A DNA stretch of 64,000 nt from a virus. Shown in pieces: positions 5,241 through 63,736 of this stretch (position 1 is its first letter; every line of letters begins with the position of its first letter). Location: the IMG/VR virus record IMGVR_UViG_3300003323_000920, one strand, 5' to 3'. The notes under the pieces were generated by a model that was given only the letters and a program-made list of their open reading frames with translations, was not told the origin of the DNA and made no database searches. The translations under genes and the position numbers were made by a program.

Positions 5241-6809
5241 TTAATCTTCCCCCTCTTCTATACCGAAGTATTCCATTGCGGCAGATTGACCTATTGCTTC
5301 CAGAAAATCATCTTTTCCAAAATGTCTAATGATATCAGTGATATCAAAATTATCCAATATTTCACCTTGCTCTGCGCCTACAATCGTGACATAATTTCTA
5401 CTAGAGCTATGTGATACAGTTATTTCTTTGGCTTTGATTTCTAAATCCATATTATTTTTGTTTTATTAATTCAAGTTCCTTTTTCTCTACAACAGTAAAA
5501 GATCCAGAAATTTCATGTATAACTTCACCATTTTTCAATGACCCATCTTTCAACCACAGCTCTAAATTATCCTTATCACCAATCCATGTAAATTCCCCCT
5601 GATAAGGGTAATCATGCTGTACTATATAATACTTTTCGATCTTATCCATTGTATTTAACATTAAAAAATTGAAAGGCTTCCGAATCCTTTTCTATACTGT
5701 GACCCCACTCCCCATGTGCAGTATTGTAAACCTTACTCAGCCTTCCATTATCGAAAATTAAATCGTAGGCTACATACATATATTCTTCTTTACCAAATTT
5801 ATTGTAGAACAAATATCCTCTTGTTTCTCTCTTTGTCGTTGTCATATAATACTAGAAGTTAAATTAGTGGCAGTGGCATTCGTCTTGTGGAAACATATCA
5901 TCCTCAAAATTCGTTGTATCCATAGTAATGTGAGAATTAGAAAAAATAATTCGTGCTATATAAGATGTAAAGTTATCAGACAATACATCTTTTACAAAAG
6001 GCAATTCCAATTCTGCGTTATCAACTATCAATTTCATTTTGTGTTGAGTCTTATCTCCATACTTCCAAGGAAGGCTTCCAATCCAATATTTTTTTATTGA
6101 TTCATTCCTTGTTTCGTAGCACTCATGAAAAGTAATCTCATACTCCTTACTCTTACATGATATTTTCACATTTAACCAATTAAATGGCGATCCATTCTCT
6201 TCAATGGATAAATAGTAGTCTTTCGGATCGTCCTCATCCATATCTTCGATAAACTGCTTTAAAATGTCAGAGAAATTAATCTCTTTATCTACTCGTGTCA
6301 GAATTTTACTAACTACCGGTATAAAAGATTTGGCAACAGCTGTATTTGCAATTAAATCGATTTCTTTACTCAATTTATCATTGATCAAACTAACTATATC
6401 CGGCAATTCCAAACCATGACCGACCTCCTGCTTTTCCAACTCTGCTTTTAATGCTTTGCGATATGGAGAACCGTATCCGCTGTAAAATTCCTTGATCTCC
6501 TCAATTGCTCCCTTCATAGCAAACTCATTAGCCTTCTGTTTGAGAGCTTCGGTATCAATCATTGGTAATATTTCCATTGTGTTCATTTTATTTTGTTCCT
6601 TTTTCATAAACTACTTTTGGATATTTAGATTTCTCAACCAACTGATCAACTTTTGCTTTTGCTTGCGCAAAGGCTGAATCACCTACACACTTATCAATGG
6701 TAACCCAATCATAATATGGTTCCCTATCTCTTGGATCAGAAAATGTAGGTTTGTATTCTTGCACTTCATATTTCGATTCTTCAGTTTGTACAACACGATA
6801 CTTACTCAT
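5241..6809 (-). other. five hypothetical ORFs (5241-5450, 5452-5661, 5642-5845, 5864-6607, 6588-6809)
   Basis: Co-oriented, abutting ORFs from the ORF track; no motif recognised. Confidence 0.55.
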
Positions 6810-8862: not shown

Positions 8863-9732
8863 TTAGAAAGGTAAATCATCATCAGCTGGTGGGGGATCCG
8901 CTTTAGGAGCTGCTGATACTTCTTGTGTTTTAACCGAATTATTTGATGGAACATATTTTTGGAAAGGTTCCAGTTTATAAAAATCTTTGCAGCCAAATTT
9001 CTCTTTAGTTATATTTTTTGTAAACCATTCTATATCCTTTGGTGCTTTTACTCCAGGTTTAAAATAATTTACTGTAGGATTACCAAATATCTCAGCAGGT
9101 AAGAAATCCAAATTGCAAACATTTTGAACTTGATGAGGTTGTGAGTTTTTTTCATAACTATTAATCGTGGCAAGCACTACTACTTTTTGTTCAGAAAAAG
9201 TAGATACAACATCATGTAACTCGCGGAAATTACCACGGAGCAATTTGTTAAGGTTGAATTCCAATTCTGCATCATCGCCTTTTAAGCACAACCATTTCCG
9301 CATGAAGTTATAAAATGCACTCTCACCTTCTTTAGCAAGCCTATATGGTCTGCTGGCAAATGTGGATTTCAATTCATCCTCAGATTTTGCCCAAGCCTCC
9401 CACCCTAGATTGTTCAAATATTGATAGGTTTCGGATTTTGATTTTCCTCGTACTTTATCCCATATAGTAAATCTTAATGGAAGGTATGTTCCGGTGGTAG
9501 TTTCTTTTAGAATGATGGAGATTGTAACCGTGTCTGTACCATCTTTTGCTGTGTCGATGTACTCAGGATCCTTTTCTACCTTCCACCCCAAAGCCTGCAT
9601 TTGCTCTTTAGACATATTAATACCTACTACATTACATTCAGCAATGCCTGTATATAGCTTTTTCTCAAACTTTTTTCTTTCTTGATTTTCAGCAGGAGTA
9701 TTGGTACTCTCTTGCCCTTTTACTATTGCCAT
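8863..9732 (-). CDS. single-stranded DNA-binding protein, crAss-type
   Basis: Adjacent to ERF and primase; acidic tail PPPADDDLPF typical of Bacteroidota/crAss SSBs. Confidence 0.6.
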   Translation of the reverse strand: MAIVKGQESTNTPAENQERKKFEKKLYTGIAECNVVGINMSKEQMQALGWKVEKDPEYIDTAKDGTDTVTISIILKETTTGTYLPLRFTIWDKVRGKSKSETYQYLNNLGWEAWAKSEDELKSTFASRPYRLAKEGESAFYNFMRKWLCLKGDDAELEFNLNKLLRGNFRELHDVVSTFSEQKVVVLATINSYEKNSQPHQVQNVCNLDFLPAEIFGNPTVNYFKPGVKAPKDIEWFTKNITKEKFGCKDFYKLEPFQKYVPSNNSVKTQEVSAAPKADPPPADDDLPF

Positions 9733-9743
9733 TATTATAATTT

Positions 9744-10385
9744 TTAAATATCTGCATCAGTCATTAATGACTGTTGTACTGCTTTGGTAATTCGATACTG
9801 TGCTTTTAAACTGTCCAAGTTGCCCTCTTTCTTGACTATCTCAACAGCTGTAAGATATTCTGGTAACAATTCGGTAGAACCCAAAGCTGTTCTATTTAAG
9901 AAAGGCTTTTTTTCTTCTTCGGACCTATCTGGTTTTTCGCCAGGCTTATTGCCATCATTATCCTTATCAATATTTAAATTGAGAATGGAAACAATTGCGA
10001 ATCGTCGCCCATAGGTAACAGCAGCTCCCCATTTTTGAGAATCCTCATAAGAATCACTTCTCCAAACTATAGCACCTTCCCTATCCTTTTCTTTATTCTG
10101 AGAAGGTTCAATATTAAGTTTGAAAGTAGTCATCATATATTGCCCACTTTTTCCATGAACAACCATGGCAGTCATACAATTATTACCAGTTGGTAAACAA
10201 GTAATAACAAGACCAGTTTCAGCCAATTTAGGTTCCACTTCATTTAATATTGCAGAAAGATCTGCATATTTGGCTTTGAAGAAGGGGTTATCTTCTGTTT
10301 TATAGATTTTACCTACCTTATTCTTAAACTCCAGGATGGCACTAAACAATTCCTTAATTTCTTGAGAAAATTTAATTTCTTCCAT
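9744..10385 (-). CDS. erf: ERF-family ssDNA-annealing recombinase
   Basis: NPFFKAKYADLSAIL and QKWGAAVTYGRRFAIVSILNL...DNDG motifs. Confidence 0.9.
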   Translation of the reverse strand: MEEIKFSQEIKELFSAILEFKNKVGKIYKTEDNPFFKAKYADLSAILNEVEPKLAETGLVITCLPTGNNCMTAMVVHGKSGQYMMTTFKLNIEPSQNKEKDREGAIVWRSDSYEDSQKWGAAVTYGRRFAIVSILNLNIDKDNDGNKPGEKPDRSEEEKKPFLNRTALGSTELLPEYLTAVEIVKKEGNLDSLKAQYRITKAVQQSLMTDADI

Positions 10386-10399
10386 TTATATTATTTATG

Positions 10400-10439
10400 C
10401 AAATATAAGAAAAATAAGTTAATTGGAAAATAGAAAAAT
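10400..10439 (-). promoter_or_regulatory. TATATTTG promoter element plus 19-nt motif AATTGGAAAATAGAAAAAT
   Basis: caaatata at 10400-10407; the motif at 10421-10439 recurs exactly, inverted, at 42320 and 42383. Confidence 0.6.
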
Positions 10440-10588
10440 AGAAAATATAATTAGGCAAATTTTTTTATCCCATTGGATCATTATTCCAGCTGAAACACTG
10501 ATTATAAGATCCCTTTACTCTTTTAAATCCCAGAAAGAACCCCCGGACGGTCTCCAGTCTAATGCCAAATTTTGATTTAACTAATTTC

Positions 10589-10858
10589 TTATTTTTCTTC
10601 TTTGTGTGGGGTTTCTTCATATAAGAGATTTTTTATGGAATCACAAGGAACGCAAGTGAACGAATAGTCATTTGATGTGCCGCGTTCTGCAAAGCACAAG
10701 TTTGTACGCCCATCTTTGAAATATCTAATTTCTTGGTATTGCGAATCACCCCACCTCTTACTATCCCCTCTTATATAATTGGGTTGTTTTTGAAAATCAG
10801 TGCTACAACTTGCCAGTAGAATGGAACAAAATATTATTGCCTTATTCATTATTAACAT
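10589..10858 (-). CDS. small lipoprotein
   Basis: Signal peptide with lipobox IIFCSILLAS-C. Confidence 0.6.
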   Translation of the reverse strand: MLIMNKAIIFCSILLASCSTDFQKQPNYIRGDSKRWGDSQYQEIRYFKDGRTNLCFAERGTSNDYSFTCVPCDSIKNLLYEETPHKEEK

Positions 10859-11057
10859 TTTTTGTTTTAAAATTTTTTAATATTGAGACTTCATATTCTA
10901 GTTCATCTATTCTTTTTTGCAAAGCATTAAGATGTGCTTCAACTTCAGCATGACCATGAAGTGCCCAACTGTCCGTTTGAAAACTTGTTCGTAGTTTTAT
11001 TTCCTTTGAATTTCCGGATTTCTTTCTCATAAATCTATTTTCAAGTATCATAAAAGT

Positions 11058-41539: not shown

Positions 41540-41880
41540 TTAAGGGCCTACTATTCCGGTAGGTAACCGGTGAAATGAATACAGCGGCTCCGTGAATGTT
41601 ACCCAAATTATTTACCTTCACAAATCAATGAGATAATCAATTTTTATTTAATACGGATCGTTTAATGTGATCCTTTTCGCGGATGCCAACATTAGGGACA
41701 AGTCAACCTAACGGCGTGTATCTCGCTACCTTTCCTGCTGTTTTATGATGTGGTTCTACCACTTCAGGGCGTACATGTTACATAGGCTCATACGCTTGCC
41801 TTTATTGGTTACTGCCAATTATCAGGAGGAAATAACATTTCCCCATGACGGTTACTATAATTTTCACCGGTTACAACAAT
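41540..41880. ncRNA. candidate large structured ncRNA
   Basis: 13-bp closing stem 41563-75/41862-74 plus five internal hairpins; no credible ORF. Confidence 0.45.
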
Positions 41881-42181: not shown

Positions 42182-42291
42182 GGTATCTGTTCCCGTGCTT
42201 AGTAAGGCACGTTATCTGTTGCAGGCATAAAAAGAACTTTGTTTGTCAACTTGGTATCTGTTCCCACACTTAACTAGGTGTGTTATCTGTT
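42182..42291. repeat. two 39-nt hairpin-containing repeats separated by 32 nt
   Basis: ggtatctgttcc-cgtgc-ttagtaag-gcacg-ttatctgtt and ggtatctgttcc-cacac-ttaactag-gtgtg-ttatctgtt. Confidence 0.9.
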
Positions 42292-56400: not shown

Positions 56401-57669
56401 TTATAAAGGGTTTTGTTCATTCATTTCGGTTTTATCTTCTACTGCTTTCATCATTAATTCACCCTCTTTAGCTAGGGGATCATGTGTTACATACAAATGT
56501 CCAAATGGGGATCTAATAGATGTGTAAACATGGGTATCAACACTTGGATCTACATTGTCACCAAAGAATATCCACCTGCCCAATTCTTTTAGATGATTTT
56601 TAATATCCAACTGCAATCTATCCATTTCACTTTCTGTTAATAAAATTTCAATACTACAGTCAGGTCCTAAACCATTTTTGGTTTTGAACTCGTAAATCTT
56701 TTCTTTGACTATTTCCAATAAGGTATTATTCATGACTACTTTTTAATATTTCAAATCGTTTAATTAACTCACAAAACAACATATCTGGGTCTTTATTAAA
56801 ATTCACTGGGATCTCTAAACACCAATCCTTTCCACCAGACATTGCCAACCTCGTAATCCAATCCTTACATTGATCTATTAATTCTTCATCAGTCAAGGTA
56901 CATCCTATGTCTTCACTCATAATAGTAGGTTTGTTTAACCTGGTGAATAATGGGTTCCTTTTCCCCTCTTGCATTTATCCTGGTACCAAAATTGAAATAG
57001 GTTTGGCCTTTCAAATAGGCTTTAAGATGGGCATTTTCAAATTTTAACGCTTCTTTAGGAATGGGATCACCATGTTTGTCTGTAGTTCGTGTATATACTA
57101 TACCTAAAAATCTACGTCTGAGTTTTTGTTCACTTTTACTTTGGGTCATTTACAATATAATATATTTATCACCTGTCTGTCCATTTACTAAATGATGTGC
57201 ATCCCACTCATTTGCTTCTCTTATTCCAATAAAATTTGGAATAATTTTTTCATTAAGATAACCCAATACTTTGGTGTCTAATGGAAATTTTTGAAGAAAT
57301 TCTATTAACTGCCCTACATTTTCTATGTAATTATAGATAGGTGGTGGAGGTGTTGGATTATCCTTCCAATACTGGATCATATCGGGATGATAAGTAGTAC
57401 CAGTTGTAGTTGTACTACTGGAGGTAGGGATCTCACTATTCATTCACATTAACATTTTCTTTTGATTTCTCTTTCTTTTGTCTTTTTTGGTGAGACACTG
57501 GAGTTTTGAGTCCTGAATTATGTAATAAGTTATTTATTAAAGTATTTACACTTTCTGGATCACCAAATGTTCCTAATGAGTCATATACTAAATTCTTTAA
57601 GTCATTAACACTCATTAACACGAATTCCTTGTCATTTGAATTAGGTACCAATTTTCTTTTTATTTTCAT
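56401..57669 (-). other. hypothetical ORFs (56401-56733, 56726-56974, 56913-57149, 57150-57443, 57436-57669)
   Basis: Co-oriented coupled ORFs. Confidence 0.55.
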
Positions 57670-57685
57670 ACTTTGATATTTTATA

Positions 57686-57757
57686 CAAATTTACTTATTA
57701 TTTTCCAAATTTTTTTATTTTTCTATTTTTCTATTTGAAATGTTTTCCCTATATTTG
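57686..57757. promoter_or_regulatory. divergent Bacteroidota-type promoters
   Basis: caaattta (57686-93, minus) and tatatttg (57750-57, plus) with an A/T motif between them. Confidence 0.65.
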
Positions 57758-57764
57758 CATTGTT

Positions 57765-58100
57765 GAAGTAAAATACTCCCCCTACTTATGCCCTGATTTC
57801 AGCTGGAGCAATCCAGTAGGTTGTAAGGATTCCATGAGAGGGCGAGATTACCTGGTGAGAAAGGATAAATATCTGGTTCAGCATGTCCAGTTTTTTGTAT
57901 AAAATACTGGACAATTTTTGCAGGATTTTTATCTGGTCATTCTCATAATTCCAGGTTTAACAGGACAATCCAGAAGTTCCCTACCATAAAACGTGGTAAG
58001 CGAAGTGGAACCATTGTAATAAAACCAGGTAACCCAGCGGTGTTGGGCTAGAATTCAGGAAAGAAACTGCATTCGATTGGTAAAAGGCGCTGGAAAGAAA
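57765..58100 (+). ncRNA. candidate ~330-nt structured ncRNA or leader
   Basis: Starts just after a promoter; 9-bp long-range stem, GCAA tetraloop, possible pseudoknot, at least four more hairpins; no ORF of 60 aa or more. Confidence 0.5.
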
Positions 58101-58254
58101 TGTTAAATCTTCTTCTTTATTTTCAAATTTTTGCTCCCTTTTAACCCTACGTGTATCTACTAAGATTCACTAGTCTCAAATTAAAGGTCTAACAAACCAC
58201 CATCCCAGATGAAGGGATTGTATTTTAAAGGGGTGCGATTTTTAATTCAAGCAT

Positions 58255-58638
58255 ATGGAAGCGAAATATAACCCTGAAACTACAGACAGTAGCGATAAAA
58301 AATTGCAGATCAAACTTTTGGAGTACCAGAAGCAAGATGAAGAGATAATTGAACATTATCGAAGAAAAATGGGTGTGTATTTACCCAAACTTTCTACCAT
58401 TGAAACTTATAATGGCCTCATAGAATACGTACAGGAAATGTATTTGAATGGGATGATAGTTGGGGATGAATTTGTGATGAAGCCTTCTGAGGAACAAAGG
58501 AACAAATTAATAGATTCCACCTATTTATCCTTATATGGAGATTTAAAAATAGGAGAACCAACTGGATTTTATAACCATTATCAAGAGGGTGGATTTGTAA
58601 TTGAAACATTTTTTGGTGTTAAAATAATTATAAAATGA
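58255..58638 (+). CDS. hypothetical protein
   Basis: First plus-strand ORF after the structured region. Confidence 0.55.
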   Translation: MEAKYNPETTDSSDKKLQIKLLEYQKQDEEIIEHYRRKMGVYLPKLSTIETYNGLIEYVQEMYLNGMIVGDEFVMKPSEEQRNKLIDSTYLSLYGDLKIGEPTGFYNHYQEGGFVIETFFGVKIIIK

Positions 58639-59050: not shown

Positions 59051-59653
59051 ATGTTGAAAATAGGTATAACAGGTGGTATTGGTTCCGGCAAAAGCACGGT
59101 GGCAAAAATATTTGAGCTGCTGGGTATTCCCGTATATTATGCGGATGCGGCTGCCAAAGACATTATGAACCGTGACCCGGAACTGAAGGCCCAGGTGCAG
59201 CAGAATTTTGGCGCGGATATGTATGACAGTAACGGGCAGCTGGACCGTAAACGCCTTAGCAACATTATTTTCAACCACCAGGAAAAACTACTACTGCTGA
59301 ATTCCCTGGTGCACCCGGCTACCATCCGCGATTCTGAGCAATGGGCTCTGAGGCAAAAATCACCCTATCTACTGAAAGAAGCCGCCCTGCTGTTTGAATC
59401 AGAATCTTTTCGTTACTTGGATAAGATCATCGGCGTATCTGCCCCGCAGCCTTTGCGCATCTTACGTACCATGCAGCGGGATAAGGTTAGCCACAATGAA
59501 GTTTTTGCCCGTATGCATAAACAAATGGATGAAACCATTAAAATGCGTTTATGCGATTACGTGATCTATAACGATGAACAGCAGATGGTAATACCGCAGG
59601 TGCTGAGATTACATCAAGAATTAAACTTAATGAGCCGGAACGCCTCTACATAA
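59051..59653 (+). CDS. coaE: dephospho-CoA kinase
   Basis: KIGITGGIGSGKST, ADAAAK, LDRKRL, LNSLVHP, EAALLFE, R..QM, DYVIYND; GC about 47-53% vs about 30% in flanks. Confidence 0.95.
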   Translation: MLKIGITGGIGSGKSTVAKIFELLGIPVYYADAAAKDIMNRDPELKAQVQQNFGADMYDSNGQLDRKRLSNIIFNHQEKLLLLNSLVHPATIRDSEQWALRQKSPYLLKEAALLFESESFRYLDKIIGVSAPQPLRILRTMQRDKVSHNEVFARMHKQMDETIKMRLCDYVIYNDEQQMVIPQVLRLHQELNLMSRNAST

Positions 59654-61377: not shown

Positions 61378-61695
61378 ATGCCAAGAAAGAAAATCTATGT
61401 TGAGATGGAATTGGAGTGGGCTGAAGTACAGCTCCACAATTGGAGAGAATATATAGATGCCAATCCTATAGACCTTTTAACTGATAGAATTGAATGGGTG
61501 GATGGAAAATATGGATTAACCCCCAAAGTTATTCAATCAAAAGAAAATCAAATAAAGTCTGTTCAAGAAACCCTCGTTAAATATCTAACCCTTTTAAAAG
61601 AAGTGAATGAAATGCGTGAAGGTAGAGAAATGAGGGTAGCAGCCAAAGGAGATATAGAAATACCCCATAGAATGAAAAAGTCTGATGGAAATTAA
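61378..61695 (+). CDS. conserved protein directly upstream of TerL (possible small terminase)
   Basis: Position and helical character only. Confidence 0.35.
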   Translation: MPRKKIYVEMELEWAEVQLHNWREYIDANPIDLLTDRIEWVDGKYGLTPKVIQSKENQIKSVQETLVKYLTLLKEVNEMREGREMRVAAKGDIEIPHRMKKSDGN

Positions 61696-63736
61696 GACTA
61701 CAGAATTTTTTAAAAATTATCATCTACTGCCTAAAAGAAATACCCCAGAATTCGAGCAATTAGTTGACGAAGAAATTGAGAAATGTAAAGGTGGTGTTAC
61801 AGTCAATGGAATATACTTTTCCGGTTGGCTCTATTTTTATTTGAACCATTGGTGGATTCGTGTAGATAAAAAAGATAATTACGGAAATATTGTAAAAGAA
61901 CCCCTCCAACCATATTTAAGGGATAACGAATGGATCCGGTCAGAAGCTTTAGAACAATGTCGCCAACAGATGAAAGGCTACATGGAAATTGGTCTAAGGC
62001 AAGGTGGTAAATCTGAATTTGAGGCATCTATTACTGCTTACAATGCATTAATGTTCAAAGATACTCAAAATGTAATTGTTGGTGGTAATGATCCTGACTT
62101 AGGATTGTTAAAAGATAAAATAGATTTTGGTTTAAAAAGAGTTTGGGAAGGACTGGCAATTCCCCGGTTGGATAAAGACTGGAGGAAATCGATGGTCAAA
62201 TTGGGCTATAAACAAAAAGATAATGAAGATGAAATATGGTCCTATTTAATTATCAGAAACGCAGATGGGGGCGATAATACCGAAGCACCAGCAGGTACAA
62301 CCGCTAAATCCTTTGTAATGGATGAAGTGGGTAAATACGAATTTAGTCCTGTATTTACCGCCGCAAAACCTGCATTTATATCAGAATTTGGTTGGCGAAC
62401 TATTCCAGTATTAGTAGGAACTGGTGGTTCTTTTGAAAAGGGGAATGATGCCAAAAGGTTCTTTGAAAATCCAGAAGCTAACAACTTCTTAGCATTTGTT
62501 GATCCTGAGACTGGAGCTAAAACCTGTCTTTTTATGCCGGGGTGGTATCGGCAAGATTGTAAATATGATACAACATTAGATAGGTTTCTTATAGATGTTA
62601 GGGGAATGGAACTCAGTGATGTTTCTGAATTATCCAAGATTCCTATTAAAGTTGCCGATAAAGAAAGGGCCATTGCCAGAATAAAAGCTGATAGAGAACA
62701 AAAAGCAAAGGATCCAGATCAAACAGATTATTTAAAGGAAATAATGTATCATCCGCTTACTACTGCGGAGTGCTTTTTATCTTCGGCTACAAATTTTTAT
62801 AATGGTGAATTAGCAGCAAAGCAAAAGACCAAATTAATTGAAAATAATGTTACTGGATCCTGTGTATTTCTAAAACACGATGGTGAAAAAATAATACATG
62901 AATTTGTTCCTCATAAACGACCTATTTCTTCTCACCCAGTTAAAAAAACTGAAGATTTAGATGCCCCTATTGTGATCTGGGAAATGCCCATCTCAAATCC
63001 ACCATATGGTCTTTATGTAGCTGGAGTTGACCCATATAGACAAGATCAAGCTACTTATAGTGATTCGTTAGGGGCTGTATATATATATAAAAGAATGCAT
63101 GATATTGCTGGGGAAAAATTGCAAGATGCATTTGTTGCGGCGTATGTTGCCAGGCCAAAAGACAAAGGTAAATGGGAAGAGCAAGCCCGATTACTTATAA
63201 AATATTATAATGCGAGAGCTTTGTGTGAAAATGATGAAATAAGTTTTATTGATTACATGATCGACAAAGGAGATGAGCATTATTTAGAACCGCAGCCCGA
63301 TTGGCTTAAAACTATTGTACCTAATTCCAAAGTGGATAGAAAAAAGGGTATTCATAGGTCAAGTGAAAGTATAAGAACACACCTCAGAGGTTTATTCAAA
63401 ACCTATATGGAGGAAAAAATTCACACAGAAAAAGATGAACATGGTTCAATCATAAAGGAAACCTATGGTATTTCCCGCGTACTTGATCCAATGTTGTGTG
63501 AAGAAGTTGCTACTTGGAATATAGATGGAAACTTTGACCGTGAAGTTGCTGCATCCCTGGCAATCGCACAGGCCAGGCATATGGATCCAAGAATTGGAAA
63601 AGTTAATTCAGCCGAACAAGATCCTCGTTACAAATCCTACTTTGAAAGAAATAAAAGTAACCCCACTTCCCTTTTTAAAGAAAAGAAAAACAGTACAATA
63701 CGAAAAGGAAGTAGAATAAAAAGATTATTTAAATAG
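61685..63736 (+). CDS. terL: terminase large subunit
   Basis: Walker A GLRQGGKS, Walker B FVMDE, VGTGG, nuclease VAGVDPY, YYNA...EN, GNFDR. Confidence 0.93.
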   Translation: MEIKTTEFFKNYHLLPKRNTPEFEQLVDEEIEKCKGGVTVNGIYFSGWLYFYLNHWWIRVDKKDNYGNIVKEPLQPYLRDNEWIRSEALEQCRQQMKGYMEIGLRQGGKSEFEASITAYNALMFKDTQNVIVGGNDPDLGLLKDKIDFGLKRVWEGLAIPRLDKDWRKSMVKLGYKQKDNEDEIWSYLIIRNADGGDNTEAPAGTTAKSFVMDEVGKYEFSPVFTAAKPAFISEFGWRTIPVLVGTGGSFEKGNDAKRFFENPEANNFLAFVDPETGAKTCLFMPGWYRQDCKYDTTLDRFLIDVRGMELSDVSELSKIPIKVADKERAIARIKADREQKAKDPDQTDYLKEIMYHPLTTAECFLSSATNFYNGELAAKQKTKLIENNVTGSCVFLKHDGEKIIHEFVPHKRPISSHPVKKTEDLDAPIVIWEMPISNPPYGLYVAGVDPYRQDQATYSDSLGAVYIYKRMHDIAGEKLQDAFVAAYVARPKDKGKWEEQARLLIKYYNARALCENDEISFIDYMIDKGDEHYLEPQPDWLKTIVPNSKVDRKKGIHRSSESIRTHLRGLFKTYMEEKIHTEKDEHGSIIKETYGISRVLDPMLCEEVATWNIDGNFDREVAASLAIAQARHMDPRIGKVNSAEQDPRYKSYFERNKSNPTSLFKEKKNSTIRKGSRIKRLFK

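Follow-up and report, generated by a model that had tools for sequence, protein, structure and literature searches.

A conserved, structured RNA ahead of the late genes of uncultured crAss-like phages

In a 64,000-nucleotide (nt) stretch of viral DNA (IMG/VR virus record IMGVR_UViG_3300003323_000920, hereafter the window) we have found that the divergent intergenic region between a leftward block of replication genes and a rightward block of late genes, for packaging and capsid, holds an element that is almost certainly a real and new family of structured RNA. The same fold was recovered in 11 distinct copies, the window and 10 others, with covariation above controls and all six reading frames closed, and the structured non-coding RNA that an initial annotation had proposed here can be taken as real. 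The conserved element spans approximately 57762-58124 on the + strand, a little past the 58100 at which the initial annotation had ended it, and is 363 nt long in the window, with a core of about 275 nt; over the copies the length is about 280-365 nt, the minimal ones being those of loci L032 (272 nt) and L033 (280 nt). Every copy comes from an uncultured crAss-like phage and precedes the rightward late unit, within the divergent intergenic region.

The region matched none of 50,697 phage records in a blastn search. A two-block pattern taken from the 5' domain had no matches in IMG/VR, and its three matches in JGI metagenome contigs were all to the same bacterial coding sequence and were set aside as chance; likewise, the 19 matches of a conserved 16-mer in IMG/VR were attributed to chance because the remainder of the element was absent in every one of them. 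Relatives were recovered through proteins, namely homologues of the terminase large subunit (TerL) and the family of the 127-amino-acid (aa) open reading frame (ORF) that follows the RNA. Loci L002 and L003 were reached through the closest TerL homologues, at 87% and 72% identity, and both have the element in the same place; that of L002 is 81% identical over 416 nt and that of L003 keeps the conserved blocks at both ends. The 127-aa ORF family has only 13 relatives among 5.8 billion proteins, and in every locus fetched with upstream DNA (11/11 distinct copies) the RNA was found 100-130 nt upstream of the family member and on the same strand. The copies fall into three divergent groups, which differ in the identity of their core to that of the window: group A (the window, L002, L029, L030, L032 and L122) at 85-90%, group B (L003 and L033, the latter identical to L034) at about 60%, and group C (L031, L035 and L037, the last identical to L038 and L123) at roughly 46-57%. 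Since these 11 sequences, all from uncultured environmental phages, form three clades, the number of independent covariation events is modest.

The fold was derived by RNAalifold on groups A and B, by separate minimum-free-energy (MFE) folds of L032 and L033, and by manual threading of group C. All three routes converge on one architecture, and the two separate MFE folds independently yield the same helices. Fifteen helices, in the same linear order, could be threaded onto 10 sequences with 65-72 canonical pairs in each, the exceptions being a tandem U·U in P2 (group B) and in P6 (group C) and one bulge. In the MAFFT alignment of groups A and B (A3, seven sequences) 94.4% of the cells pair, compared to 86.1±0.8% in shuffled alignments, and both sides of the pair have changed in 21/70 pairs, compared to 10.4±2.2 (0/500 shuffles reached 21); when the partners were slid, 0-6 pairs with changes on both sides and 33-48% pairing were obtained. 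For the 3' domain, an alignment of 10 distinct sequences from all three groups (A10) has both-side changes in 18/38 pairs, compared to 8.8±2.1 when shuffled and 2-7 when slid; this alignment was fitted to the model and leans towards it. Judged from these alignments, compensatory changes are present in nearly every helix, far beyond what the shuffled and slid controls produce.

The individual helices (Table 1) illustrate this pattern. P1, which brings the ends of the RNA together, reads GAAGA/UCUUC in group A, AUUGA/UCAAU in group B and GUAAAA/UUUUAC in group C. Within the 5' domain the internal loops carry the invariant GCCCU and UUGUAAGGA, and P3 is capped by GCAA or GUAA in all copies on five different stem sequences (CUGG, CUGA, CCAA, CCGG and CAGA). 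The tip of P4 is the part that varies most in size, from a 6-nt loop to about 95 nt in the window, and the extension is missing from L032 and L033. In the 3' domain P5 is found as UUAACA/UGUUAA, UUAUGG/CCAUGA and UCAUAAA/UUUAUGA, P6 as UCCAG/CUGGA, UACAG/CUGUA and, in L122, UUCAG/CUGAA, and P7 as GUUCC/GGAAC, GGAACUG/CAGUUCC and GCUGUA/UACAGC. Junction and loop sequences are invariant across the copies.

Most of the pairings that had been read by eye in the window reappear in this fold. The helix ctgga-GCAA-tccag is P3, and gttcc/ggaac enclosing taccat/gtggta corresponds to P7 with P7a and cccagc/gttggg to P9, all of which covary in relatives; tgagaa/ttctca belongs to the P4 extension, where it becomes UGGG/CCCA in L002, and tgtccagt/actggaca is the hairpin inside the insertion specific to the window. 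Two proposals did not survive the comparison. The first was a 9-bp helix between ttacctggt (57848-56) and accaggtaa (58024-32). Here ACCUGG at 57850-55 pairs instead with CCAGGU at 57951-56 to form P4, with compensation seen as ACCUAG/CUAGGU (the 5' strand being changed in L029 and L030) and as ACCUAUA/UAUAGGU, and the supposed distal partner stays CCAGG in L029 and L030 despite the change in the 5' strand; ACCAG at 58024-28 is the 5' strand of P8 and pairs with UUGGU at 58077-81. The second was a pseudoknot in which ccta/tagg was crossed by gccct/agggc. In groups B and C its partners are altered and not compensated: AGGGC turns into AUUGC (group B) or AAAGU (group C) while GCCCU remains invariant.

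Folding energy points in the same direction, moderately. The + strand of 57765-58100 has an MFE of -97.4 kcal/mol (z = -3.0), which is better than dinucleotide-shuffled controls, and 2/100 shuffles folded equally well; the - strand of the same interval gave z = -2.1. As folding energy is only moderate evidence (z of -2.45 and -0.9 for the minimal relatives L032 and L033, respectively), the case for the RNA rests on the comparative data. The element was said to be GC-richer than its surroundings, and this is correct for its immediate flanks (0.39-0.40 within the element versus 0.25-0.31 in the flank 57400-57800) but not for the coding average, which it does not exceed. The strand is fixed by G-U pairs kept on the + strand (U·G in P2 in 7/7 sequences and G·U in P8 in 9/10), because the opposite strand would give A·C mismatches at these positions; a reading on the - strand was rejected on these grounds and on the orientation of the promoter box described below. 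No coding frame was found: each of the six frames contains 1-11 stops in all 11 copies, no frame is common to the copies, and insertions and deletions among them are not multiples of three. A coding reading was rejected on the stops present in all six frames of every copy. Gene calls or mechanical ORFs do overlap the RNA in the window (57735-57902, + strand), in L029 (5537-5755, - strand) and in L122 (5467-5745, + strand); they share no common frame and are probably false protein predictions.

The initial annotation had matched the element to no known class (no tmRNA, RNase P or group I/II signatures), and wider searches agreed. Rfam 15, whose 4227 models include riboswitches, ribozymes, introns, 6S, the signal recognition particle RNA (SRP), RNase P, GOLLD, ROOL, HEARO, OLE and raiA, gave no match at the gathering threshold over the 64-kb window. 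On 57600-58300, with matches admitted up to E = 10, only eukaryotic small nucleolar/small nuclear RNA and Plasmodium models appeared (E = 1.6-6.5), at 11-18 bits against thresholds of 39-70, and nothing was found on the element of ten other loci (L030, L032, L033, L035 and six further). RNase P/MRP models did not match even at E = 10 with permissive filters, nor did the ROOL and GOLLD covariance models, both of which are in Rfam. ARAGORN detected neither tRNAs nor a tmRNA, whether in the window or in the RNA-bearing loci. Group I/II introns likewise gave no Rfam match, and the element is intergenic between divergent units and interrupts no gene. No reverse transcriptase was present among the 30 ORFs scanned with Pfam and the 10 scanned with PHROGs, which include all neighbours of the RNA, and the same scans identified no IscB/TnpB-type or recombinase gene near it. 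Searches of the literature turned up no report of an RNA of this kind from crAss-like phages. It constitutes a new class of orphan RNA.

Table 1. Features of the RNA, of its surroundings in the window, and of the tRNA arrays of relatives (the latter in coordinates of the named locus)
Feature	Position	Strand	Remarks
Intergenic gap	57670-58254		585 nt; leftward ORF ends 57669, first rightward ORF begins 58255
Second TAnnTTTG box TAAATTTG	57686-57693	-	faces left, towards the ORF ending 57669
-7 promoter box TATATTTG	57750-57757	+	Bacteroidota type; consensus TAnnTTTG
P1 5' strand GAAGU	57765-57769	+	pairs with 58108-58112; clamps the RNA ends; three pairs compensated
5' domain	57776-57846	+	P2, P2b, P3
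P2	57776-78/57844-46, 57780-83/57839-42, 57785-90/57833-38	+	two pairs compensated
P2b	57792-94/57826-28	+
P3 hairpin	57802-07/57812-17	+	GNRA loop GCAA at 57808-11; 4/6 pairs covary
P4 base helix	57850-55/57951-56	+	two pairs compensated; encloses variable extension 57856-57950
Extra hairpin in P4 extension	57887-57918	+	insertion specific to the window
3' domain	57957-58106	+	two three-way junctions; 146-150 nt in all three groups
P5	57957-62/58101-06	+
P6	57969-73/58090-94	+
P7	57976-80/58007-11	+
P7a	57982-87/57993-98	+
Conserved joiner AAUAAAA	58018-24	+
P8	58024-28/58077-81	+	P9 and P10 branch from P8
P9	58033-38/58042-47	+
P10	58051-54/58071-74, 58056-58/58067-69	+	conserved loop GAAAGAAA at 58059-66
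Conserved joiner J8/6 AAAAGGCG	58082-89	+
P1 3' strand	58108-12	+	followed by U-rich tract UUCUUUAUUUU (58113-58124)
Downstream box CCTTTTAACCCTACGTGTA	58137-58155	+	19 nt; conserved in all copies; unique in the 64-kb window
First ORF of rightward unit	58255-58638	+	127 aa; no Pfam match; family known only adjoining the RNA
TerL (terminase large subunit)	61685-63736		683-aa ORF; phrog_6681, E = 6e-76
tRNA array, L004	1831-7360		25 tRNAs
tRNA array, L043	1720-4082		20 tRNAs
tRNA array, L044	2542-4904		20 tRNAs
tRNA array, L047	3070-3657		5 tRNAs
tRNA array, L049	506-811		3 tRNAs
tRNA array, L075	3068-4652		3 tRNAs

The promoter box and the next convincing ORF are both located where the initial annotation had placed them, and its view that the RNA begins just after TATATTTG is strengthened by the relatives. 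The TA..TTTG of the box is invariant in all 10-11 copies and keeps the same spacing to P1, while the flanks of the box vary; L003, L031 and L122 have an extra TTTG 20 nt 5' of it. From this arrangement the start of transcription is predicted at about 57762-57766. TATATTTG and, on the opposite strand, TAAATTTG give the gap two divergent promoter boxes of host type. The + strand has no further exact TAnnTTTG from the RNA up to 61208, and a degenerate TAnnTTT(T/A), conserved within the spacer about 25 nt ahead of the first ATG of the late unit, could be a promoter of the late operon itself.

At the other end, the U-rich tract is kept in all groups; it adjoins P1 in groups A and B, and 5 nt separate the two in group C. 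P1 together with this tract, the sole conserved 3' signal, would form the 3' end of the RNA and act as a terminator or attenuator. A scanner for consensus terminators made no call there, because the "hairpin" in this case is the entire RNA. The 130-nt spacer between the RNA and the ORF diverges fast, with the exception of the degenerate TAnnTTT(T/A) and of the downstream box, which lies about 100 nt ahead of the first late ORF and, given its conservation, may be part of the element. The CCUUUUA of this box is complementary to the UAAAAGG of the invariant joiner J8/6, and in group C, where CACCUUCU stands opposite GGAAGGUG, one A-U to G-C swap and one C·A to U-A change are seen; as this is a single evolutionary event, the evidence for the pairing is weak. 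RNAduplex runs of the core against the downstream spacer produced unrealistically long duplexes and were discarded.

The RNA is rare, and its spread does not follow that of TerL. Covariance model R1, built on the 5' domain, matches family members only, and when nhmmer and models R1 and R2 (3' domain) were run over about 85 TerL-relative loci (45-65% identity) no copies were found outside the family. R1 and R2 likewise gave no match at 41540-41880 and 42182-42291 of the window, so that any RNA element there would be unrelated in sequence. A scan of genome contigs by TerL gave three loci, including one of Chitinophaga sp. YR573, none of which has the RNA, and among the 2.9 million contigs of IMG/VR a family-wide degenerate pattern identified one copy, on the contig of L037. 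The core RNA of L029 (RNA at 5557-5890, TerL at 8949-11027) is 88% identical to that of the window, with TerL only about 43% identical; the TerL of L003 is 72% identical to that of the window, yet its RNA is of group B, at 60%. This discord between the RNA and TerL suggests that the RNA and the downstream gene form a module exchanged between phages. Overall the RNA evolves much more slowly than the surrounding phage proteins, with the core 85-90% identical where the proteins are about 43-57% identical.

In six relatives that lack the RNA the rightward late unit is headed by a tRNA array of the same orientation (Table 1), and no tRNA gene is present in any RNA-bearing locus or in the 64-kb window; the slot thus serves stable RNA genes. 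The 127-aa neighbour was examined as a possible RNA-binding partner. It has no Pfam match, Foldseek against the PDB returned nothing at E ≤ 0.001, and its AlphaFold (AF2) model is weak, with a predicted local distance difference test score (pLDDT) of 65. Its structural look-alikes in the ESM Atlas are fragments of HK97-type (crAss/SU10) capsid proteins, at a template-modelling (TM) score of about 0.5, and no RNA-binding fold was recognised with Pfam, the AlphaFold model, Foldseek or the Atlas.

As for the phage itself, the source of the window is an uncultured crAss-like phage. Its leftward block encodes a DNA polymerase, a helicase, a primase-type zinc ribbon and an ERF recombinase, and in relatives Crass_capsid proteins are found immediately 3' of TerL. 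The nearest isolates by TerL are all remote, namely Leptolyngbya phage Lbo-JY46 (38% identity), Cellulophaga phages (29%) and gut crAss phages (28%). The TerL genes of group C (L031 9824-12399 and L037 9678-12387) exceed 1000 codons and match LAGLIDADG/Hom_end families, and they probably contain an intein. Among the small ORFs of the late unit the window encodes a full-length dephospho-CoA kinase (59051-59653; Pfam CoaE, E = 1.8e-45), with a GC content of 0.48-0.50, well above its surroundings; the precomputed Pfam lists flagged no equivalent in the relatives' loci.

What the RNA does can be approached from its position and its ends. We tentatively favour the view that it is a discrete, stable, trans-acting RNA that ends at the U-tract. 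Host RNA polymerase would start at about 57763, and P1, closing beside the U-tract, would end most transcripts and release a stable RNA, about 360 nt long, with paired and thereby protected ends. This compact RNA would then act in trans on a conserved partner, which may be a machine of the host, a small ligand or other copies of the RNA, in analogy to ROOL and GOLLD, which are orphan RNAs of phage tRNA islands; read-through transcripts may feed the late genes. The invariant promoter box, the paired ends, the U-tract after P1 and the closed frames are what one would expect of a separate RNA gene. The replacement of the RNA by tRNA arrays in relatives argues, by analogy, for a slot given to stable RNAs, and the contrast between core and TerL identity in L029 is consistent with a conserved partner. 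Several points weigh against this view. The start, the end and the stability of the RNA are all predicted, and P1 with its U-tract is not a canonical compact terminator and was passed over by the scanner. As no other exact TAnnTTTG is present on the + strand up to 61208, the first late ORFs may depend on the promoter of the RNA, which would favour a role in cis. Furthermore, the strict linkage of the RNA to a single downstream gene family is what is usually seen with leaders, the complementarity between the downstream box and a core joiner suggests that functional transcripts run past the U-tract, and 11 sequences in three clades offer few independent covariation events.

The same points lend themselves to a second explanation, possible if somewhat doubtful, in which the RNA acts in cis, as a leader through which the late unit is gated: P1 and the U-tract would halt the polymerase, and a signal would permit read-through to the packaging and capsid genes. 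A protein of the phage or host might serve as this signal, as might a metabolite, or the RNA itself might modify the polymerase in the manner of put; the layout can be likened to lambda PR'-6S-tR', to a very large riboswitch or to an antiterminator. The RNA lies on the same strand at a fixed 100-130 nt ahead of the first late ORF in 11/11 copies and is tied to the 127-aa gene family that follows; its promoter is the only exact one on the + strand before 61208, the U-tract comes directly after the closing helix, and invariant junctions combined with covarying stems are typical of aptamers. The pairing of the downstream box with J8/6, which covaries once, would also imply that read-through transcripts matter. 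Nonetheless, the box lies after the U-tract and therefore cannot control termination there, which counts against a leader. No conserved alternative terminator/antiterminator hairpin of the kind that marks attenuators and riboswitches was found, the candidate GGACU/AGUCU of L032 and L029 being uncompensated in the window, L030 and L122, and the riboswitch and leader models of Rfam gave no match. At about 275 nt the core far exceeds known aptamers and put RNAs in size, and the degenerate promoter-like box in the spacer near the ATG is a further point against a leader. The gate in cis and the discrete RNA in trans are not mutually exclusive.

It was also considered that the RNA is a ribozyme or processing element, in which a reaction catalysed by the core, such as self-cleavage, would free the RNA or trim the late mRNA, with the RNA extending to about 58155 and the downstream box serving as substrate or pseudoknot strand. 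Most large, highly structured bacterial RNAs with known function are ribozymes or ribonucleoprotein cores, and the large complex fold, the invariant unpaired nucleotides and the complementarity of the box to J8/6 would fit such a role. This explanation is improbable, as no Rfam ribozyme, intron or RNase P model matched even at E = 10, no cleavage-site signature could be recognised, and the pairing of the box rests on a single covariation event. Still less probable is a transcript that primes replication or forms an R-loop at an origin in the divergent early/late region, comparable to ColE1 RNA II or the T4 oriF/oriG transcripts. The element does lie where leftward replication genes give way to the rightward late block, and a promoter is followed there by a structured RNA and then an AT-rich stretch; however, neither iterons nor repeats were seen, gene orientation accounts for the change in skew at the site, relatives place tRNA arrays here, nothing ties the RNA to replication genes, and the module travels with the late-side gene instead. 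Lastly, it is hardly credible that there is no functional RNA at all and that the signal comes from an AT-rich spacer folding by chance, from a gene for a small protein or from an element acting as DNA: the ORFs called over the element in the window, L029 and L122 and the energy of L033 may be cited for it, but the stops in all six frames, the indels, the compensatory changes far above controls, the strand set by G-U pairs and promoter box, and the slow change of the core amid diverged proteins are against it.

Large RNAs whose complex folds are supported by covariation are uncommon, and where their function is known they mostly turn out to be ribozymes, ribonucleoprotein cores or sensors; a further one offers a concrete target for structural and biochemical work. 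This one is positioned at the early/late switch of crAss-like phages, whose late-gene control is poorly understood. A core that is 88% identical where terminase is about 43% identical suggests a strongly conserved partner, probably a host component, and a module that travels with one small gene and replaces tRNA arrays in its slot hints at a link to translation or tRNA biology. It is rather unlikely, though worth stating, that the RNA represents a new class of large functional RNAs by which crAss-like phages time their late phase, functionally interchangeable with the tRNA islands that occupy this slot in relatives. Such an RNA could be a ribozyme, a sensor of a host molecule or of a tRNA-related partner, or could act directly on host RNA polymerase, and each time it would turn on or assist the expression of the packaging and capsid genes.

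When compared to known systems, the RNA shares with RNase P RNA and tmRNA a length of 300-400 nt, paired 5' and 3' ends, a multi-domain build, GGUAA-type motifs and A-rich joiners, but when read by eye no P4-type conserved regions, tRNA-like end or tag frame could be recognised. Like large leaders (the T-box, cobalamin and other riboswitches), it lies downstream of a promoter and ahead of the first gene, whose strand it shares, with a closing P1, invariant junction nucleotides with covarying stems and a GNRA loop. It differs from them in having no Rfam match and no conserved terminator/antiterminator pair, in a core that exceeds known aptamers, and in the 130-nt poorly conserved spacer that separates it from the ORF. 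The lambda PR'-6S-tR' region resembles it in the host-type promoter that heads the late unit and in a short transcript, predicted in our case, with a U-tract before the late genes; lambda 6S RNA, however, is not a conserved structured RNA. In HK022 put, too, a folded RNA is made first on the transcript, just after the promoter, as is predicted here, but put is made up of two stem-loops, each about 70 nt long, compared to 15 helices and about 275 nt, and no Q-, N- or NusG-like partner was identified at the RNA of the window. ROOL and GOLLD are phage RNAs often found near tRNA islands (PMC12286853). Like them, the RNA described here is phage-encoded, large and multi-branched, with a fold conserved by covariation, has no known function or protein partner, and is associated with tRNA islands, in that it takes the place of the tRNA arrays of relatives. 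Its core of about 275 nt is smaller than the about 580 nt and over 800 nt of these RNAs, it is found in place of tRNAs and not beside them, and it belongs to crAss-like phages with Bacteroidota-type hosts, so that the resemblance is one of kind and genomic setting only.

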